A DNA stretch of 6,906 bases from IMG/VR virus record IMGVR_UViG_2617270945_000017; one strand, written 5' to 3'. The stretch comes from a virus. Taxonomy: Duplodnaviria > Heunggongvirae > Uroviricota > Caudoviricetes. The first letter of the stretch is position 1. Each line of letters starts with the position of its first letter. The notes beneath the pieces were generated by a model that saw nothing but the letters and a program-made list of their open reading frames with translations, was not told the DNA's origin and did not search any database. Positions 1 through 6,906 of the stretch are shown piece after piece. The translations under genes were made by a program, and so were the position numbers.

Positions 1-1175
<1,175 letters not shown>

Positions 1176-1308: not shown

Positions 1309-1728
1309 TTAGTAACTTTTGCTCCCCTCAATAAATCCGCCATCTTTTATCGGACTGCAATGTCCTTCTTCATCAATCAGTTGCTCGTCTTTCAGGTAGG
1401 TATATCGATAGATAATTGAGCCATTATCCATCTCACCATTGGTTCGTTTCATTAGGAGAGTAAAATGTAACGGGCTGTCCCTATATCGAGCTATTCCATG
1501 AATATTGGCAAGTACCTCATATTGACGCTCAGGTGATAACCCTTTAAATACATCGAGATATCCATGGAATGTTCCATAGAGTGAAGAAGTGTAGATCAGT
1601 CGCTGCTCTGGACCAGTAACTTTAAGAGTAATTTGTTCACCCGTATTACAGGTTAGCTTGGCGGGAAATGTCTCAGCCTGAGCAGAAGAAATAGTCAAGC
1701 TTAAAATTATCAGGTAGCAATATTTCAT
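1309..1728 (-). CDS. Small secreted or periplasmic hypothetical protein, about 139 aa, in a low-GC island
   Basis: ATG at 1728 gives MKYCYLIILSLTISSAQA|ETFPAK..., a typical Sec signal peptide with an AQA cleavage motif. The mature part has two Cys. The region is visibly AT-rich compared with its flanks. The Shine-Dalgarno is weak; the longer ORF in the track to 1830 would need a TTG start and would bury the signal peptide. Confidence 0.55.
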   Translation of the reverse strand: MKYCYLIILSLTISSAQAETFPAKLTCNTGEQITLKVTGPEQRLIYTSSLYGTFHGYLDVFKGLSPERQYEVLANIHGIARYRDSPLHFTLLMKRTNGEMDNGSIIYRYTYLKDEQLIDEEGHCSPIKDGGFIEGSKSY

Positions 1729-2043: not shown

Positions 2044-2598
2044 TCATTTATCTCCGACCGGAAACATCTTATACAGTGTCGATACACCAACATCATAGAT
2101 GATCGCTACCTTCTGGCGAGGAATTCCTGCTGCAATTAATCGTCCGGCCTGCTCCCATTGTTCTGGTGTAAGTTTGGGGCGACGTCCACCAATTCGTCCC
2201 TGTGCGCGAGCTGCTTCCAGTCCAGCTTTTGTTCGTTCAACAATCAGTTCACGCTCCATTTCAGCGAGGGCACCCATCACATGAAAGAAAAAGCGCCCCA
2301 TTGGGGTACTGGTATCAATTGAATCCGTCAGACTACGAAAGTTGATACCTCGTTCGCGCAACTCCTCCACCAGCACGACAAGATGCCGCATACTGCGCCC
2401 CAGTCGGTCCAGTTTCCAGACCACCAGCGTGTCACCTGCCGATAATGTCCTGAGCAGCTTTTTCAGTCCTGGTCTGTCGGACTTTGTACCGCTTATCTTG
2501 TCTTCAAAAATCAGCTCACATCCTGCACAGTTCAGCGCATTACGTTGTAGATCGGTATTCTGGTCATTTGTTGATACACGTACATAGCCAATAAGCAT
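2044..2598 (-). CDS. Serine recombinase, DNA invertase of the Hin/Gin/Cin/Pin family, 184 aa
   Basis: ATG at 2598 is preceded by AGGGGGA 7 nt upstream. The N-terminus MLIGYVRVSTNDQNTDLQRNAL has the catalytic-Ser motif of small serine recombinases; the protein also has GRIGGRRPKLT and a C-terminal HTH (VGVSTLYK). It resembles E. coli e14 Pin and phage Mu Gin over its whole length, from memory. The 196-aa ORF in the track starts 12 codons further upstream. Confidence 0.88.
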   Translation of the reverse strand: MLIGYVRVSTNDQNTDLQRNALNCAGCELIFEDKISGTKSDRPGLKKLLRTLSAGDTLVVWKLDRLGRSMRHLVVLVEELRERGINFRSLTDSIDTSTPMGRFFFHVMGALAEMERELIVERTKAGLEAARAQGRIGGRRPKLTPEQWEQAGRLIAAGIPRQKVAIIYDVGVSTLYKMFPVGDK

Positions 2599-2655
2599 GT
2601 TAAATCCCCCTGGTAAAAGCAGGAATGATGCCATTTGCTCGTTATTTCTGCATTT

Positions 2656-3217
2656 TCATATACGAAGGTTTTCGAGAGCCGTTTTCACCGTGCCATCCGA
2701 TTTGATATCACCAAACGGATTCTTGCGGCTTAACAGCAGAGCACGAAGCGCGGTAAGCAACTGGTCGTTTCGCCCCTTCTCCAGGCTGGCACCGGATGCC
2801 TCCACCACGCTGCAAAGCTCCTCCTGCAACATATCAAAGTAGTCATCATCCAGATCGGTGGCAGGTGTGCCGGTCTGGGGGTTACCACGGGTATAAGCCC
2901 CTGGACTCCAGTTCTTCCGCCTGGCGGGTCAGGCACAAAATCTCCCGCGGGTCGTTAGTGCCGACATAGAAATTGCGCACAGGTCTGGTTTCACGAACTG
3001 GTTGCGGTTCCGCCTCCTGCGCTCTCTCAGTCAGGCGCGGGAAATGTCTGCGTGTATCTCCTTCACAACGGTGAGCCACACGCCCACTCTGACGTAACTT
3101 GCTTGCTGACTGCAGAACGCGCTGCCGTGAGTAACCTGCAAAAGCATCCGCAATGTCTCCGGAAGTACACCCCGGATGGGCTTCAATGAATTTCTGAACT
3201 TCATTCAAAAGACTCAT
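2656..3217 (-). pseudogene. Phage early gene split by a frameshift into two fragments (2882..3217 and 2656..2928); N-terminal part looks winged-helix-like
   Basis: ATG at 3217 with GGGGGTGA upstream, 2 nt after the TGA stop of the replication gene. This frame stops at 2882..2884. The +1 frame is open from 2928 to a TGA at 2656..2658 and reads as plausible protein ([30 protein letters not shown]...[14 protein letters not shown]...) with no start codon of its own. A CCCC run at 2898..2901 sits in the overlap. Confidence 0.5.
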
Positions 3218-3219
3218 AA

Positions 3220-4110
3220 TCACCCCCTGAATCCTGCCGGGATCTGGCTGTAGTCCACATTGTCGTAACTGGCTTTGAAGTACGGGTCTTCACGTTTTTC
3301 TGTGTGCGTGCTGACGGACGGCGATAAGCGCAGGGAAAGCTCATCCCATTTTTCCCGCAACTTCGACGGGCTGAGCACGTTACGGCACCAGAACGGATCG
3401 CGGCTGACGCGGCTGTACATCTCGCAGATTTGTTTGTGAGTACGACCATCCTGCACACACATCAGGCGAATTTCGTTTGCCCAGGCTGTCCAGTTAGGTT
3501 CTTTGGGACGAACCACCTCGCCGTCACATTCGGCGGCCTGCTCGTACAGGGCGATGATTTTTTTCCAGAGCCACTGTGCGCAGGTCAAATCATCCTGCGT
3601 TCCCCACTGGCGCTTTTTAGGGCTGAATACAACCGCATCAGGATGGCGAGTTAAAAAATCCTGTTCATCCATCTGCGTGTCCGGTTGCGAAGCGTCCGGA
3701 CGAGAAGGTTTTTTATCTGATGGATCATGTTTTGATTTTACTGACGGATCCCCGCCAGATTCTGACGGGTGAAAACCCGCTTTTTTGCCAGATTTCGACG
3801 CATCAAATTTTGACGGGTCAGATTTTGATGCGTCAGATTTTGACGGGTCAGAATCTGACAGTTGAGAAAATGCCGCTGCCTGAAGCTTCGCAACGTTAAG
3901 CTGATAAACATTCGACGCATTGCGGTTATCCGGTCTTAAGTCAGATTTCGTAATTGCACCTGACGTGCATTGCTCAAGTTTTTTAGCCAGCACAAAACTG
4001 GCTTTTTTATAGCCATTGAAAACCAGCCGTAAGTAGCCAGGTGTTGAGCCAACTTTTCCGGCCAACTCGCCCTGCTGTTCTTTGGTTAAAGAGTCCCAAT
4101 ACGCTTTCAT
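3220..4110 (-). CDS. Replication-initiator-like protein with N-terminal Cro/YdaS-like HTH and an iteron-encoded repeat linker (lambda O-like architecture), about 296 aa
   Basis: ATG at 4110 with GGAGGT 9 nt upstream. The N-terminus MKAYWDSLTKEQQGELAGKVGSTPGYLRLVFNGYKKASFVLAKKLEQCTSGAITKSDLRPD resembles YdaS/Cro-type HTH proteins, including the ...LRPD ending. The middle has pentapeptide repeats (SKSDA/SKSDP/SKFDA) encoded by tandem 15-bp DNA repeats. It sits directly divergent from the repressor. The C-terminal domain was not identified. The 381-aa ORF in the track is an upstream extension. Confidence 0.7.
   Translation of the reverse strand: MKAYWDSLTKEQQGELAGKVGSTPGYLRLVFNGYKKASFVLAKKLEQCTSGAITKSDLRPDNRNASNVYQLNVAKLQAAAFSQLSDSDPSKSDASKSDPSKFDASKSGKKAGFHPSESGGDPSVKSKHDPSDKKPSRPDASQPDTQMDEQDFLTRHPDAVVFSPKKRQWGTQDDLTCAQWLWKKIIALYEQAAECDGEVVRPKEPNWTAWANEIRLMCVQDGRTHKQICEMYSRVSRDPFWCRNVLSPSKLREKWDELSLRLSPSVSTHTEKREDPYFKASYDNVDYSQIPAGFRG
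3737..3862. repeat. Iteron array, putative phage replication origin embedded in the replication gene
   Basis: 15-bp units of form TCAGATTTTGACGGG: four contiguous copies at 3803..3862 (TCAAATTTTGACGGG, TCAGATTTTGATGCG, TCAGATTTTGACGGG, TCAGAATCTGACAGT), two more at 3755..3769 and 3788..3802, and a partial copy near 3737. An AT-rich stretch lies alongside at about 3700..3745. Confidence 0.65.
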
Positions 4111-4112
4111 AC

Positions 4113-4137
4113 AATATGTACCTCCGGTGTACATATT
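4113..4137. promoter_or_regulatory. Palindromic operator candidate overlapping the Shine-Dalgarno and start of the Cro-like gene
   Basis: AATATGTAC-ctccggt-GTACATATT is a perfect 9-bp inverted repeat with a 7-bp spacer. It shares the core TGTAC-N7-GTACA with the sites at 4165..4185 and 4921..4939. Confidence 0.6.
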
Positions 4138-4164
4138 ACATGATTGAAATGAACCTTCAAGATA

Positions 4165-4185
4165 CTTGTACCTTAACGGTACAAG
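4165..4185. promoter_or_regulatory. Palindromic operator candidate overlapping the -35 of the repressor promoter
   Basis: CTTGTACC-ttaac-GGTACAAG is a perfect 8-bp inverted repeat. Candidate repressor promoter on the + strand: -35 TTGTAC (4166..4171), 17 bp, -10 TTTAAT (4189..4194), with the transcription start near the A of the ATG at 4201. Candidate promoter for the Cro-like gene on the - strand: TTGAAG, about 16 to 17 bp, TAATAT. Confidence 0.6.
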
Positions 4186-4200
4186 GGTTTTAATTTCGTT

Positions 4201-4875
4201 ATGAAAACAATCCATGACATCCGGCGGTCTAACGCCAGAAAACTGAGAGATGGTGTTGGCGGGAATTCTTCCTTTGCCACTATGATTGATCGCGAGCCAA
4301 CCCAGACCAGCAGGTTTATGGGAGATGGTGCTACTAAAAATATCGGTGACAGCATGGCACGACACATCGAAAAATGTTTCGACCTACCTGTCGGATGGCT
4401 CGATCAAGAACACCAGACAACGAACATCACAAAAAAACCTGATGTTTCAATCACTAATAAACAAATCACATTAGTCCCTGTCATATCATGGGTACAGGCC
4501 GGAGCATGGAAAGAAGTTGGATATTCTGAGGTTGATTTGAGCACAGCAGAAACGTATCCCTGCCCTGTACCCTGTGGGGAAATGACTTATATCTTGCGGG
4601 TGATAGGTGATTCAATGATTGATGAGTACCGCCCGGGAGACATGATTTTTGTCGATCCTGAAGTACCTGCCTGCCACGGTGACGACGTTATTGCATTGAT
4701 GCACGATACAGGTGAAACCACCTTCAAAAGGTTAATAGAAGATGGGACACAGCGTTATCTCAAAGCGTTAAACCCAAACTGGCCTGAGCCTTACATTAAG
4801 ATCAACGGTAATTGCTCTATAATTGGTACAGTGATTTTCTCAGGAAAACCAAGAAGATACAAAATCAAAGCCTAA
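4201..4875 (+). CDS. CI-like phage repressor with XRE-type HTH and LexA/S24 autopeptidase domain, 224 aa
   Basis: The C-terminal domain carries the S24 Ser-Lys dyad motifs (RVIGDSM... and ...TTFKRL) and WVQAG upstream. The N-terminus has an HTH-like ...IGDSMARHIEKCFDLPVGWLD. The gene is divergent from the Cro-like gene across the operators. There is no Shine-Dalgarno before the ATG at 4201, which fits a leaderless transcript. Confidence 0.85.
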   Translation: MKTIHDIRRSNARKLRDGVGGNSSFATMIDREPTQTSRFMGDGATKNIGDSMARHIEKCFDLPVGWLDQEHQTTNITKKPDVSITNKQITLVPVISWVQAGAWKEVGYSEVDLSTAETYPCPVPCGEMTYILRVIGDSMIDEYRPGDMIFVDPEVPACHGDDVIALMHDTGETTFKRLIEDGTQRYLKALNPNWPEPYIKINGNCSIIGTVIFSGKPRRYKIKA

Positions 4876-4887
4876 TCAATGTTTATG

Positions 4888-4911
4888 AACCTGCTTCGGC
4901 AGGTTTTTTTA
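4888..4911 (+). terminator. Rho-independent terminator after the repressor gene
   Basis: AACCTGC-TTCG-GCAGGTT is a 7-bp GC-containing stem with a UUCG loop, followed by a run of seven T. It starts 13 bp after the repressor TAA. Confidence 0.85.
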
Positions 4912-4914
4912 TAC

Positions 4915-4947
4915 TTGACAATGTACCTTTGAGATACATAATGTACC
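4915..4947 (+). promoter_or_regulatory. Near-consensus sigma-70 promoter with an embedded operator copy (PL-like)
   Basis: -35 TTGACA (4915..4920), 16-bp spacer, -10 CATAAT (4937..4942). The spacer contains ATGTAC-ctttgag-ATACAT (4921..4939), the same TGTAC-N7-(G/A)TACA motif as the two operators at 4113..4185. A second ATGTACC follows at 4941..4947. Confidence 0.65.
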
Positions 4948-5119
4948 CAAGAGAAACAACGAACAGGCAGGACGCCCACGAAGTAGCCGCCTGGGGCATA
5001 TGAAGTCCAGGATGATTCGTTGAGTCATGTTGTGCCACTAGGCACTCATGTTAAAGCAGGTGTATGAAATGAAAGTCCAGATTTTAAACAATAACTGTGA
5101 AGTCGTTTGGGCGTAAAAC

Positions 5120-5326
5120 ATGACCGCGCGTAGACCAAGGGAGGAAAAAGTGGGAATAGTTAGAAATCAAGCAGATATATTGAAAATCAGCTCTGAATTG
5201 CTTGGAGTTTTGAAAAGTGAGCTCACCGCACATGGCATCGAGCCCACTGACGAAAATTTAAGTTGGGTTTTGTCGATTATTCAACAATCACTCAAGCCCA
5301 GCCTCAGCAAACTTTTTATCGAGTAG
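5120..5326 (+). CDS. Small hypothetical protein, 58 to 68 aa; start ambiguous between ATG 5120 and GTG 5150
   Basis: GTG at 5150 is preceded by AGGGAGG with a 5-nt spacer. ATG at 5120 has no Shine-Dalgarno but lies 3 nt after the stop of a 15-codon ORF (5069..5116) that has a good AGGTG site, so translational coupling is possible. No homology recognised. Confidence 0.45.
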   Translation: MTARRPREEKVGIVRNQADILKISSELLGVLKSELTAHGIEPTDENLSWVLSIIQQSLKPSLSKLFIE

Positions 5327-5479
5327 TGCTTCGAACTTATCGTAAAGCTTGCTTATGTCGTCTATCGGGTTTTCTGACGTACTGTAATTTTTATCTGATG
5401 TCATGGCAGCAGTCTGATATGCAGTGTGTGTCTTAACCGATAGTTGGAATAAATAAAGAATTTTTTCTTCTTTGGTCAT
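5288..5479 (-). CDS. Small hypothetical protein, 63 aa, AT-rich, convergent with and overlapping the previous ORF
   Basis: ATG at 5479 with AAGGA about 8 nt upstream gives MTKEEKILYLFQLSVKTHTAYQTAAMTSDKNYSTSENPIDDISKLYDKFEALLDKKFAEAGLE. Its 3' end overlaps the ORF 5120..5326 by 39 bp. No homology recognised. Confidence 0.45.
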   Translation of the reverse strand: MTKEEKILYLFQLSVKTHTAYQTAAMTSDKNYSTSENPIDDISKLYDKFEALLDKKFAEAGLE

Positions 5480-5770
5480 AACTATTTCCTTCTTGGCTAT
5501 ATGAAAACACCAAGATACCACCGAGCCTGAAGTGGTGAAAAGACAGGCACATAACAGCTAAGTATTTTCAACCAGAGAGAATCCTTAGCGTTGTGGTGAA
5601 TGCGGCTCAGCGCACGCGGGTTAAGGTTGAGGCTGACAGTCGACCTTCTGTGGATACCCACCCGCCTGGTGTGCAACCTTCGCCAGGCACCGGGAGGCAC
5701 CCGGTACCACAACTTTATGCTGTGTGTAGTCCTCGCGGTACCAGTTTGTACACTTGCTTCCGGCTGGTAT

Positions 5771-5870
5771 CGCTCTTTTTACAAAACAGAGAAGAACATC
5801 ACCGGACGACGGGCTCATAACCCAATCCATCCGGGCGGCAGTCACCGCAGGTGTTCTTCTCTGTTTTGTG
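5771..5870 (+). promoter_or_regulatory. boxA-like motif followed by a long perfect hairpin in the leader of the downstream operon
   Basis: CGCTCTTTTTACAA at 5771..5784 resembles the boxA consensus (CGCTCTTTA / TGCTCTTTAACAA). ACAAAACAGAGAAGAACA at 5781..5798 is the exact reverse complement of 5852..5869, giving an 18-bp perfect stem around a roughly 50-nt loop. It ends about 35 nt before the Shine-Dalgarno of the CDS at 5918. Confidence 0.4.
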
Positions 5871-5917
5871 GAGAAACCAACCGACCTTGCAGGGTCGATA
5901 TGATGAGGAGCAGCAAA

Positions 5918-6280
5918 ATGGCTAGCGAACGCAGTACTGATGTGCAGGCATTTATCGGGGAGCTGGACGGCGGCGTATTTGAAACCAAAATCGGCGCAGT
6001 TCTCAGTGAAGTCGCTTCCGGTGTGATGAACACGAAAACCAAAGGTAAGGTCTCACTCAACCTGGAAATCGAACCATTTGATGAGAACCGTGTGAAAATC
6101 AAACACAAACTCTCATATGTTCGCCCGACTAACCGCGGGAAAATTTCCGAAGAAGACACCACCGAAACGCCGATGTATGTCAATCGCGGTGGTCGCCTGA
6201 CTATTCTGCAGGAAGACCAGGGACAGTTACTGACTCTTGCCGGTGAACCTGACGGAAAACTCCGCGCAGCAGGTCGTTAA
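5918..6280 (+). CDS. Conserved hypothetical prophage protein, 120 aa (possibly YfdP-like, recalled from memory only)
   Basis: ATG at 5918 with GAGGAG 7 nt upstream gives MASERSTDVQAFIGELDGGVFETKIGAVLSEV... The long upstream extension of the 226-aa ORF in the track is Arg/Cys/Leu-rich and lies in the GC-rich structured region, so I treat it as non-coding. Confidence 0.7.
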   Translation: MASERSTDVQAFIGELDGGVFETKIGAVLSEVASGVMNTKTKGKVSLNLEIEPFDENRVKIKHKLSYVRPTNRGKISEEDTTETPMYVNRGGRLTILQEDQGQLLTLAGEPDGKLRAAGR

Positions 6281-6345
6281 TATCGTTTTTAATTAACTGA
6301 TTATTTATCTCATCACTGAATATCTTTATATAGTGAGGACTTATT

Positions 6346-6906
6346 ATGTCTCAGAACTTAGACGCAACCGCAATTAATCAAATCCATGCCCTTATTTCTG
6401 CTCAGGGTGTTAATGAAATTATCAGTAAGATTGGTGCCGATGCTGTGGCATTGCCTGAGAATTTCCGCATTCATGATCTGGAAAAATTTAATTTAAATCG
6501 CTTCCGTTTCCGTGGTGCGCTTTCCACTACCAGCATCGATGACTTTACCCGTTATTCTAAAGATCTTGCAGATGAAGGCACCCGCTGCTTTATCGATGCT
6601 GATAATATGCGTGCCGTCAGTGTGCTTAACCTGGGTACTATTGATGAACCAGGTCACGCAGATAACACCGCCACTCTCAAACTGAAAAAGACAGCACCGT
6701 TCTCTGCTCTGTTGTCTGTTAACGGCGAGCGTAACTCCCAGAAGTCACTGGCAGAATGGATTGAAGACTGGGCCGACTATCTTGTGGGCTTTGATGCTAA
6801 TGGTGACGCTATTCAGGCAACAAAAGCGGCTGCGGCAGTCCGTAAAATCACGATTGAAGCAAACCAGACCGCTGATTTTGAAGATAATGACTTCAGCGGC
6901 AAACGC
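6346..6906 (+). CDS. Conserved hypothetical prophage protein, 3'-partial, runs off the window (possibly YfdQ/DUF2303-like, recalled from memory only)
   Basis: ATG at 6346 with GTGAGGA 5 nt upstream. The frame is open for 187 codons to the window end: [48 protein letters not shown]... Confidence 0.75.

Follow-up and report, generated by a model that had tools for sequence, protein, structure and literature searches.

A Cro–replication initiator chimera in a degraded Escherichia coli prophage and the recurrent breakpoints that delimit it

The stretch of Caudoviricetes DNA analysed here (IMG/VR record IMGVR_UViG_2617270945_000017; 6,906 nucleotides, hereafter the window) contains on its minus strand a single unbroken frame of 296 codons, which runs from the ATG at 4110 to the stop at 3222-3220 in the list of open reading frames (ORFs) and its translations. 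The product begins with a Cro/YdaS-like helix-turn-helix (HTH), continues through a linker encoded by iterons and ends in a Trp-rich C-terminal domain. We conclude with high confidence that this frame is a chimera generated by deletion inside a cryptic E. coli prophage remnant and thus a product of decay: codons 1-61 of a cro gene (ymfT) have been joined to codons 79-313 of the gene for a phage lambda O-like replication initiator (Rep). The initial annotation, made from the letters of the window, had described these three parts within one ORF at 3220-4110, and all of them are present there. It had also stated that a separate cro is lacking at the locus, and the ORF list agrees, as the ORFs of the window include no separate cro-like or cro-sized HTH frame between the chimera and the divergent repressor gene, which lie 90 bp apart. 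The features on which the argument depends are the following.

3220..4110, minus strand: chimeric ORF, 296 codons plus stop, Cro (YmfT) residues 1-61 fused to O-like Rep residues 79-313
3928..4110, minus strand: Cro/YmfT-derived part, codons 1-61, with the last 5 cro codons and the stop gone
3926..3929, minus strand: deletion junction ...CCGGATA^ACCGC... (the caret marks the break), with TA at 3928-3927 in both parents, where the BLAST segments overlap
3220..3927, minus strand: Rep-derived part with its stop, corresponding to positions 79-313 in the 313-aa sequence of the intact O-like initiator
3741..3863, no strand assigned: in-gene iteron array, about 5 tandem 15-bp units and an outlying copy, coding-strand consensus CCGTCAAAATCTGAC
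3322..3678, minus strand: lambda-O-like helical C-terminal domain, fusion residues ~145-263
4111..4200, no strand assigned: promoter/operator region that separates the chimera from the divergent cI-like gene; identity with the intact prophage is 99%
4165-4185, cI-cro intergenic region: perfect palindrome CTTGTACC-N5-GGTACAAG
4201..4875, plus strand: intact cI-type LexA/S24 repressor, YmfK, 224 aa (Peptidase_S24, 1.5e-26)

The chimeric frame was created by a deletion, which is not visible from the letters of the window alone. In a megablast comparison with 5,426 complete E. coli genomes, the close relatives all match the window in two pieces, which span about 1.2 kb more than the query. In the intact prophage of E. 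coli 90-9281 (L001) the divergent ymfK is followed by ymfT (66 aa, annotated 'YdaS family helix-turn-helix protein'), ymfL (185 aa), a DUF4222 gene (59 aa) and the 313-aa rep gene, whose product is annotated 'helix-turn-helix domain-containing protein'; downstream of it are located yfdN and then the genes for a methyltransferase, RusA, KilA-N, DUF968 and Q. Pfam places the products of these intact genes in Phage_CP76 (cII; YmfL), DUF4222 and PerC (YfdN). Pairwise BLAST aligns window 3927-6906 with L001 6235-9214 (99.1%) and window 2890-3928 with L001 4001-5039 (98.1% at the nucleotide level). Missing from the window is L001 5040-6234, a segment of 1,195 bp that contains the end of ymfT, ymfL, the DUF4222 gene and the first 78 codons of rep, and translation of the joined sequence gives YmfT 1-61 followed in frame by Rep 79-313. 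The parental sequences, ...CCGGATA^TCTATCC... in ymfT and ...CAGGGTA^ACCGC... in rep, have TA alone in common at the joint. The question whether homologues are split into separate genes, raised in the initial annotation, can therefore be answered: cro, ymfL, DUF4222 and rep are separate in intact relatives. The same holds for cI, cro, the cII-like gene and rep of the plaque-forming phages SfII, 2H10 and SfV. Most of the 120 best database homologues of the fusion carry PF13730 at the N-terminus and align to fusion residues ~50-296 only, and no diverged full-length Cro::Rep fusion is present among these 120.

In the phage collection, residues 1-61 match the 'Cro antirepressor' of Escherichia phage 2H10 and that of Stx2c phages with 100% identity, and they are also identical to the ymfT product of E. 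coli 90-9281; in SfV the gene at the equivalent position is annotated cro, and the operator region is annotated as well. The identification of a Cro HTH in front of a replication-initiator body is thus borne out, the body itself matching PHROG 391 ('replication initiation O-like') with 2e-97 over fusion residues 48-296; the N-terminus does not fall into an O family, and no in-frame stop divides the two halves. Profile matches to the HTH are weak. YdaS_toxin (PF15943) reaches E 0.008 and 16.4 bits against a cut-off of 30 bits in the fusion, and 25.1 bits, still below the cut-off, in intact YmfT; the match to HTH_3 is likewise weak. The closest solved structures found for the N-terminus by sequence search of the PDB are two phage Cro proteins, at E 0.017-0.024. 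In an exhaustive HMMER search nearly all diverged homologues of residues 1-61 (below ~70% identity) are stand-alone proteins of 62-110 aa, and the stand-alone Cro of the relatives measures 66 aa compared with 296 aa here. The cro half keeps its place at the head of the rightward operon and is transcribed away from the cI-type repressor gene, with the operators between the two, and a Shine-Dalgarno sequence GGAGG stands 10 nt upstream of the ATG of the chimera. As 61 of 66 residues are kept, the Cro HTH is probably still foldable in the fusion. On the 3' side of the repressor gene (window 4887-4942) a terminator-like hairpin is followed by a near-consensus promoter, TTGACA-16-CATAAT, with ATGTACC repeats, which is probably PL with operators for the yfdP-yfdQ-yfdR operon.

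In the Rep-derived part, fusion residues 51-296 show 95.9% amino acid identity to the SfII 'O protein family protein' (gp41) in the phage collection, and residues 149-260 are 39.3% identical to lambda O (E 4e-18). The C-terminal domain matches PHROGs 391, 277 and 2514, so that the Trp-rich domain left unassigned in the initial annotation is a lambda-O-type C-terminal domain; a search of the solved structures in the PDB with its sequence gave no match. In the iteron array Tandem Repeats Finder (TRF) detects 4.3 copies of the 15-bp unit at 3789-3852, and a repeat search extends related copies to 3741-3863. The iterons encode a disordered, low-complexity linker of the SDPSKSDASK type. The array is nearly identical to that of the SfII O gene, the only differences being located beside it, and the number of repeats differs among homologues. 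The proteins P0046 and P0061 combine the same O-type C-domain (96% identity from residue ~149) with two unrelated N-domains and different linkers, which, judged from these sequences, indicates that the origin-binding part and its iterons are naturally exchanged as one module. In SfII/SfV-type phages (L009 3300-4729; L001 3840-5272) the initiator with the lambda-O C-domain is followed by no P, DnaC or DnaB-like gene; instead the PerC/MarR-like yfdN comes after it and overlaps the rep stop.

What the deletion took from the initiator can be read from the intact protein. Pfam detects HTH_36 (PF13730) at residues 23-70 of intact Rep with 42.9 bits (cut-off 25), and the fusion, in which Rep begins at residue 79, has no PF13730 match. 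The AlphaFold model of an intact homologue, based on an alignment of 42 sequences (mean pLDDT 70.6), comprises a winged helix with helices in 3-66 and wing strands at 70-74 and 84-88, a disordered region at 102-160, where the linker has pLDDT below 50, and a helical C-terminal domain at 162-280 with pLDDT 85-96. The breakpoint 78/79 falls in the wing loop (pLDDT below 50 at 79-81). Of the initiator, the chimera therefore retains the second wing strand, the linker and the O-type C-domain, while the whole origin-binding helix-turn-helix is gone. Foldseek places the N-domain of the model among MarR/TFE-type winged helices with generic matches only (E >= 3e-3) and finds nothing for the C-domain. 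For the fusion itself an AlphaFold model from the single sequence is uninformative as to fold (mean pLDDT 42), the NCBIfam profiles give no match to the 296-aa ORF, and an Rfam scan of the whole window gives no match to an RNA family. Because the deletion removed the initiator's own HTH_36 winged helix with the first 78 residues, the iterons would have lost their cognate binding domain, and on the basis of the model they are predicted to form an orphaned origin.

The fusion is rare. The exact 296-aa protein is encoded on about 10 contigs in NCBI, ENA and Logan, including that of E. coli 2-460-02_S3_C1 (KDY43928.1), and the same junction is present in L002-L008. Over the shared DNA the fusion contigs are 99.95-100% identical to the window, a near-identity that fits one recent event. 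The junction occurs in one piece in 0 of the 5,426 complete E. coli genomes, an exact scan for it in the GTDB species representatives and in JGI metagenomes found no occurrence, and the 3' end of cro is intact in 1,315 of the 1,328 records that match the cro part.

The element that carries the chimera is a degraded prophage stump of E. coli. On the longest contig (L002) it adjoins phoE-proBA-thrW and consists of the integrase, the early-left genes yfdR/yfdQ/yfdP, the repressor, the chimera, a truncated yfdN (111-113 aa) and, directly after it, a fragment of a tail-fibre gene, genes for tail-fibre assembly and the pin invertase. The gene maps of L002-L006 reveal a second large deletion that joins yfdN, cut at about codon 110, to the tail-fibre fragment; the nin region, Q, and the lysis, head and tail genes were lost with it. 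The corresponding features of the window, and those towards its left edge, are these.

2882..3223, minus strand: truncated yfdN (PerC family), 113 aa compared with 164 aa when intact; homology to the intact prophage stops at ~2890
2656..2832, minus strand: internal fragment of a tail-fibre gene (PHROG 1396 tail fibre, 2e-23), abutting the truncated yfdN
2044-2598, minus strand: pin invertase
1309-1725, minus strand: ORF beyond pin with the signal-peptide-like N-terminus MKYCYLIILSLTISSAQA, no match in Pfam, PHROGs or NCBIfam
115-1107, minus strand: complete gene for a transposase of the IS5 family (ISKpn26-like), marking the edge of the remnant

Sister contigs contain a 1.7-kb invertible tail-fibre segment between pix sites CCCAAACC-AA/TT-GGTTTGGG (L003 6027-6049 and 7758-7780). 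In the window and in L004 the invertible segment is gone, and a hybrid half-site AAGGTTTTCGAGA is left beside pin at window 2654-2681. An ISKpn26-like copy also adjoins yfdP in the remnant of strain EC812A1 (L019). Window 5593-5903 is annotated in relatives by RefSeq as 'frameshifted hypothetical protein', and the 226-aa ORF at 5600-6280, which overlaps yfdP in another frame, is probably no gene.

The history that we favour starts from a prophage of the SfV/SfII/e14 type with the usual rightward early operon of cro (ymfT), the cII-like ymfL, the DUF4222 gene and the gene for a 313-aa lambda-O-like initiator, in which a winged helix at the N-terminus is connected to the O-type C-terminal domain by the disordered linker that the iterons encode. 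One deletion of 1,195 bp joined cro codon 61/62 to rep codon 79, in frame by chance, and left a product that has the Cro HTH in front of the initiator from the second wing strand to the O-type C-domain, linker included. Under the intact S24 repressor the chimera would be silent, and it would be transcribed from the cro promoter after SOS or inactivation of the repressor. Loss of iteron binding is predicted because the iteron-reading recognition helix is gone; replication would not start at the protein's own iterons, the origin would be dead, and at most some residual Cro-like operator binding may persist, given the 61 of 66 residues. Several observations weigh against reading the frame as mere debris: the two parts are joined in frame, the promoter is kept along with the Shine-Dalgarno sequence and the stop, about 10 contigs contain no later frameshift, so the protein could be expressed, and its Cro HTH is probably foldable, as stated above. 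The lack of frameshifts, however, says nothing on selection, because these copies are nearly identical.

Alternatively, the chimera may have been co-opted: it would still serve as a repressor of the Cro type, or it would be a dominant-negative decoy whose O-type C-domain titrates the helicase-loading partners of incoming lambdoid phages or tethers such partners to the operators. The intact expression signals and frame, the 61 Cro residues kept together with the whole O-type C-domain, the intact neighbouring repressor gene and the recovery of the allele in several samples are in accord with this. However, no copy falls below 99.95% identity, which fits a single recent lineage; the allele is very rare; and the frame is not kept in many of the sister chimeras broken at these sites, which makes the frame here the chance expectation of 1 in 3; co-option is therefore regarded as improbable. 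The proposal of the initial annotation that a single polypeptide couples the lysis-lysogeny switch to replication initiation, that is, an evolved bifunctional regulator-initiator, draws on the continuous ORF and the lack of a separate cro and on nothing else. It finds no support in the comparisons: the two halves are nearly identical to separate genes of functional phages, with the intervening genes simply missing, four separate genes occupy the place of the fusion in intact relatives, and the fusion is confined to a few contigs. The origin-binding domain has moreover been lost, late genes are absent and diverged homologues with such an architecture do not exist among those found, so we consider this design very improbable.

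Lambda-type O proteins have an N-terminal DNA-binding domain followed by iterons within the gene, and it had alternatively been suggested that the HTH of the chimera is simply the iteron-binding domain of an O-like initiator. Although in-gene iterons are confirmed here, this suggestion is refuted by the identity of residues 1-61 to the 66-aa, operator-adjacent Cro of 2H10/SfV-type phages, by the finding that PHROG 391 aligns from residue 48 onward only, and by the nature of the iteron-adjacent N-domain in the initiator family, an HTH_36 winged helix (residues 1-88 in the intact protein) without similarity to residues 1-61; we give it hardly any credence. A mis-join of cro to rep during sequencing or assembly might be suspected, as the match to the window is a draft contig of a mere 6.2 kb (L004) and as assemblies of genomes with both e14 and a second related prophage break at rep nt 234. 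Yet the parents share 2 nt at the joint, too few for a k-mer mis-join, NCBI, ENA and Logan assemblies made independently of one another from different samples contain the identical junction, and analogous junctions at the same sites are present in finished chromosomes, which leaves an artefact with next to no probability.

An unexpected pattern concerns the positions at which the fusion was made: each end of the deletion coincides, to the nucleotide, with an endpoint that recurs in other chimeras. In L001 the break sites are located as follows; the junction of the window occupies 3924-3933.

6229-6242 of L001: cro site A
5033-5045 of L001: rep site B
5087-5099 of L001: rep site F

An exhaustive search with YmfT 1-61 recovered at least 25 different clusters (50% identity) that are identical through ...SDLRPD and diverge at residue 62, where they continue into tail fibre, baseplate, capsid, Q, Rz, tail-fibre assembly, rep or out-of-frame sequence. 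The codon for residue 62 always starts with A, and therefore the fixed end of cro is ...GGATA^. In four finished chromosomes the partners of the cro end are GP46, DUF968, major capsid and terminase gpA, and the flanking genes are annotated as truncated. In strain S3 the cro site serves as the right-hand endpoint (...AATTA^TCTATCC...); the same strain has a pseudogene (L025 4465-4788) in which rep codons 1-78 (rep nt 235, ...GGGTA^) are joined to DUF968 at the very site used in strain SHP24.

Breaks recur on the rep side as well. A search with Rep 1-78 found about 120 short chimeras, several of them on many contigs, whole chromosomes included. Divergence follows residue 78 (site B) in 45 short chimeras, and 8 more have the next two A's in common; it follows residue 60/61 (site F, ACGGCTA^TCG) in 21 and residue 70 (TGGTTA^AC) in 2, and the next codon of the rep-site chimeras starts with A in all but one. 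YmfN of the K-12 prophage e14 (L011 2671-2904, oweE/ymfN) keeps exactly rep nt 1-234, that is codons 1-78, and is in this respect, like the S3 pseudogene, the complement of the window; the terminase partner of its joint reads CCCCGGT^GATGG in intact SfV.

When the partner sites were mapped onto intact phage genomes, 54 distinct sites were obtained, which were compared with a background of all 3,606 TA sites of SfV and 2H10. The core TA is present in 45 of the 54. The flanks deviate from the background TA sites at position -6 (C in 29/54, chi-square 31), at -4 (G in 37/54, chi-square 36), at +2 (C in 35/54, chi-square 36) and at +3 (C or G, chi-square 18), and the consensus of the 54 sites, CCGGNTA^NCCGG, has dyad symmetry. 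Identical partner sites are reused by different left sites. In every mapped junction position -3 derives from the left parent and position +1 from the right parent; therefore, the exchange takes place within the TA. Since the mapped partners are all located downstream and in the same orientation, the events are deletions. Such events are rare per genome yet highly non-random, and the deletion of the window seems to belong to this recurrent class, which breaks right after TA in palindromes resembling CCGGNTA^NCCGG.

Several candidate causes of these breakpoints were rejected. The pix sites of the Pin invertase are unrelated to the break sites, and SfV has no pin; no inverted copy of a terminal sequence, as expected for a transposon end, was found; an abundance of microhomology is contradicted by the k-mers that end at the hot spots, which are not unusually frequent in the phage genomes; and the positions do not fit cutting by EcoRV or BstEII. 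Contig-end artefacts account for 'partial' proteins starting at G78, not for the junctions in finished genomes. Secondary sites of the integrase, like gyrase, are still candidates; the thrW att region is only vaguely similar to the break sites. A literature search for ymfT returned nothing on deletions. A serine-recombinase-like exchange with a 2-nt stagger fits the junctions directly, whereas the 4-nt NTAN stagger of a type II topoisomerase can be reconciled with them only by trimming and refilling of the mismatched 5' nucleotides; a nuclease-plus-ligation route is possible. The half-sites resemble the arms of REP elements (CCGGATA...TATCCGG), which are known gyrase targets (PMC6379681). We tentatively raise the idea, to which we assign clearly less than even probability, that DNA of SfV/e14-type E. 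coli prophages is broken and rejoined by a site-specific activity not described so far and that the fusion is among its products. This activity would cut the central TA, rejoin pairs of sites and yield dozens of independent precise deletions, K-12 e14 YmfN included.

The fusion is another deletion chimera of cryptic prophages, and its closest precedent is e14 YmfN (b1149) of K-12, annotated 'chimeric replication protein/phage terminase', which likewise arose by deletion in a decaying prophage belonging to this family. In both, the O-like rep gene is broken at the same point, e14 keeping nt 1-234 and the window the sequence from nt 234/235 onward. The two differ in what is retained: in YmfN the winged-helix N-domain is fused to a terminase fragment, cro, ymfL and ymfM are intact, and the joint shows GGT microhomology with the terminase gene. 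With lambda O and SfII gp41 the chimera has in common a homologous C-domain and origin-type iterons placed inside the gene in a disordered linker, but unlike lambda O-type initiators it is without the N-terminal winged-helix origin-binding domain. With the Cro of SfV/2H10-type phages it shares residues 1-61, the position and the 90-bp operator gap to the S24 repressor, but the last 5 of the 66 residues are replaced by 235 Rep residues.

Deletions with a fixed endpoint are known from Int-promoted lambda deletions that end at att and from gyrase- or REP-associated illegitimate recombination. The present class resembles them in that many independent deletions have one precise endpoint and the partner sites fit a dyad-symmetric consensus. 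It differs from the deletions of fixed-endpoint recombinases and topoisomerases in the exchange within a 2-nt TA, compared with the 4-nt stagger of gyrase, unless the ends are processed.

Two aspects of these results are highlighted. On the one hand, when a prophage gene shows an unusual combination of domains, comparison with intact relatives should come first; here it is a chimera of decay and no new regulatory design, and the fusion itself matters little. On the other hand, the recurrent TA-centred breakpoints are the part that deserves attention. If they reflect a specific enzyme, the erosion of E. coli prophages would be partly programmed by sequence, and domestication would proceed by preferred routes rather than by random decay. 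This would help to explain the shapes of e14-like cryptic prophages and would offer a testable handle on RecA-independent deletion formation.

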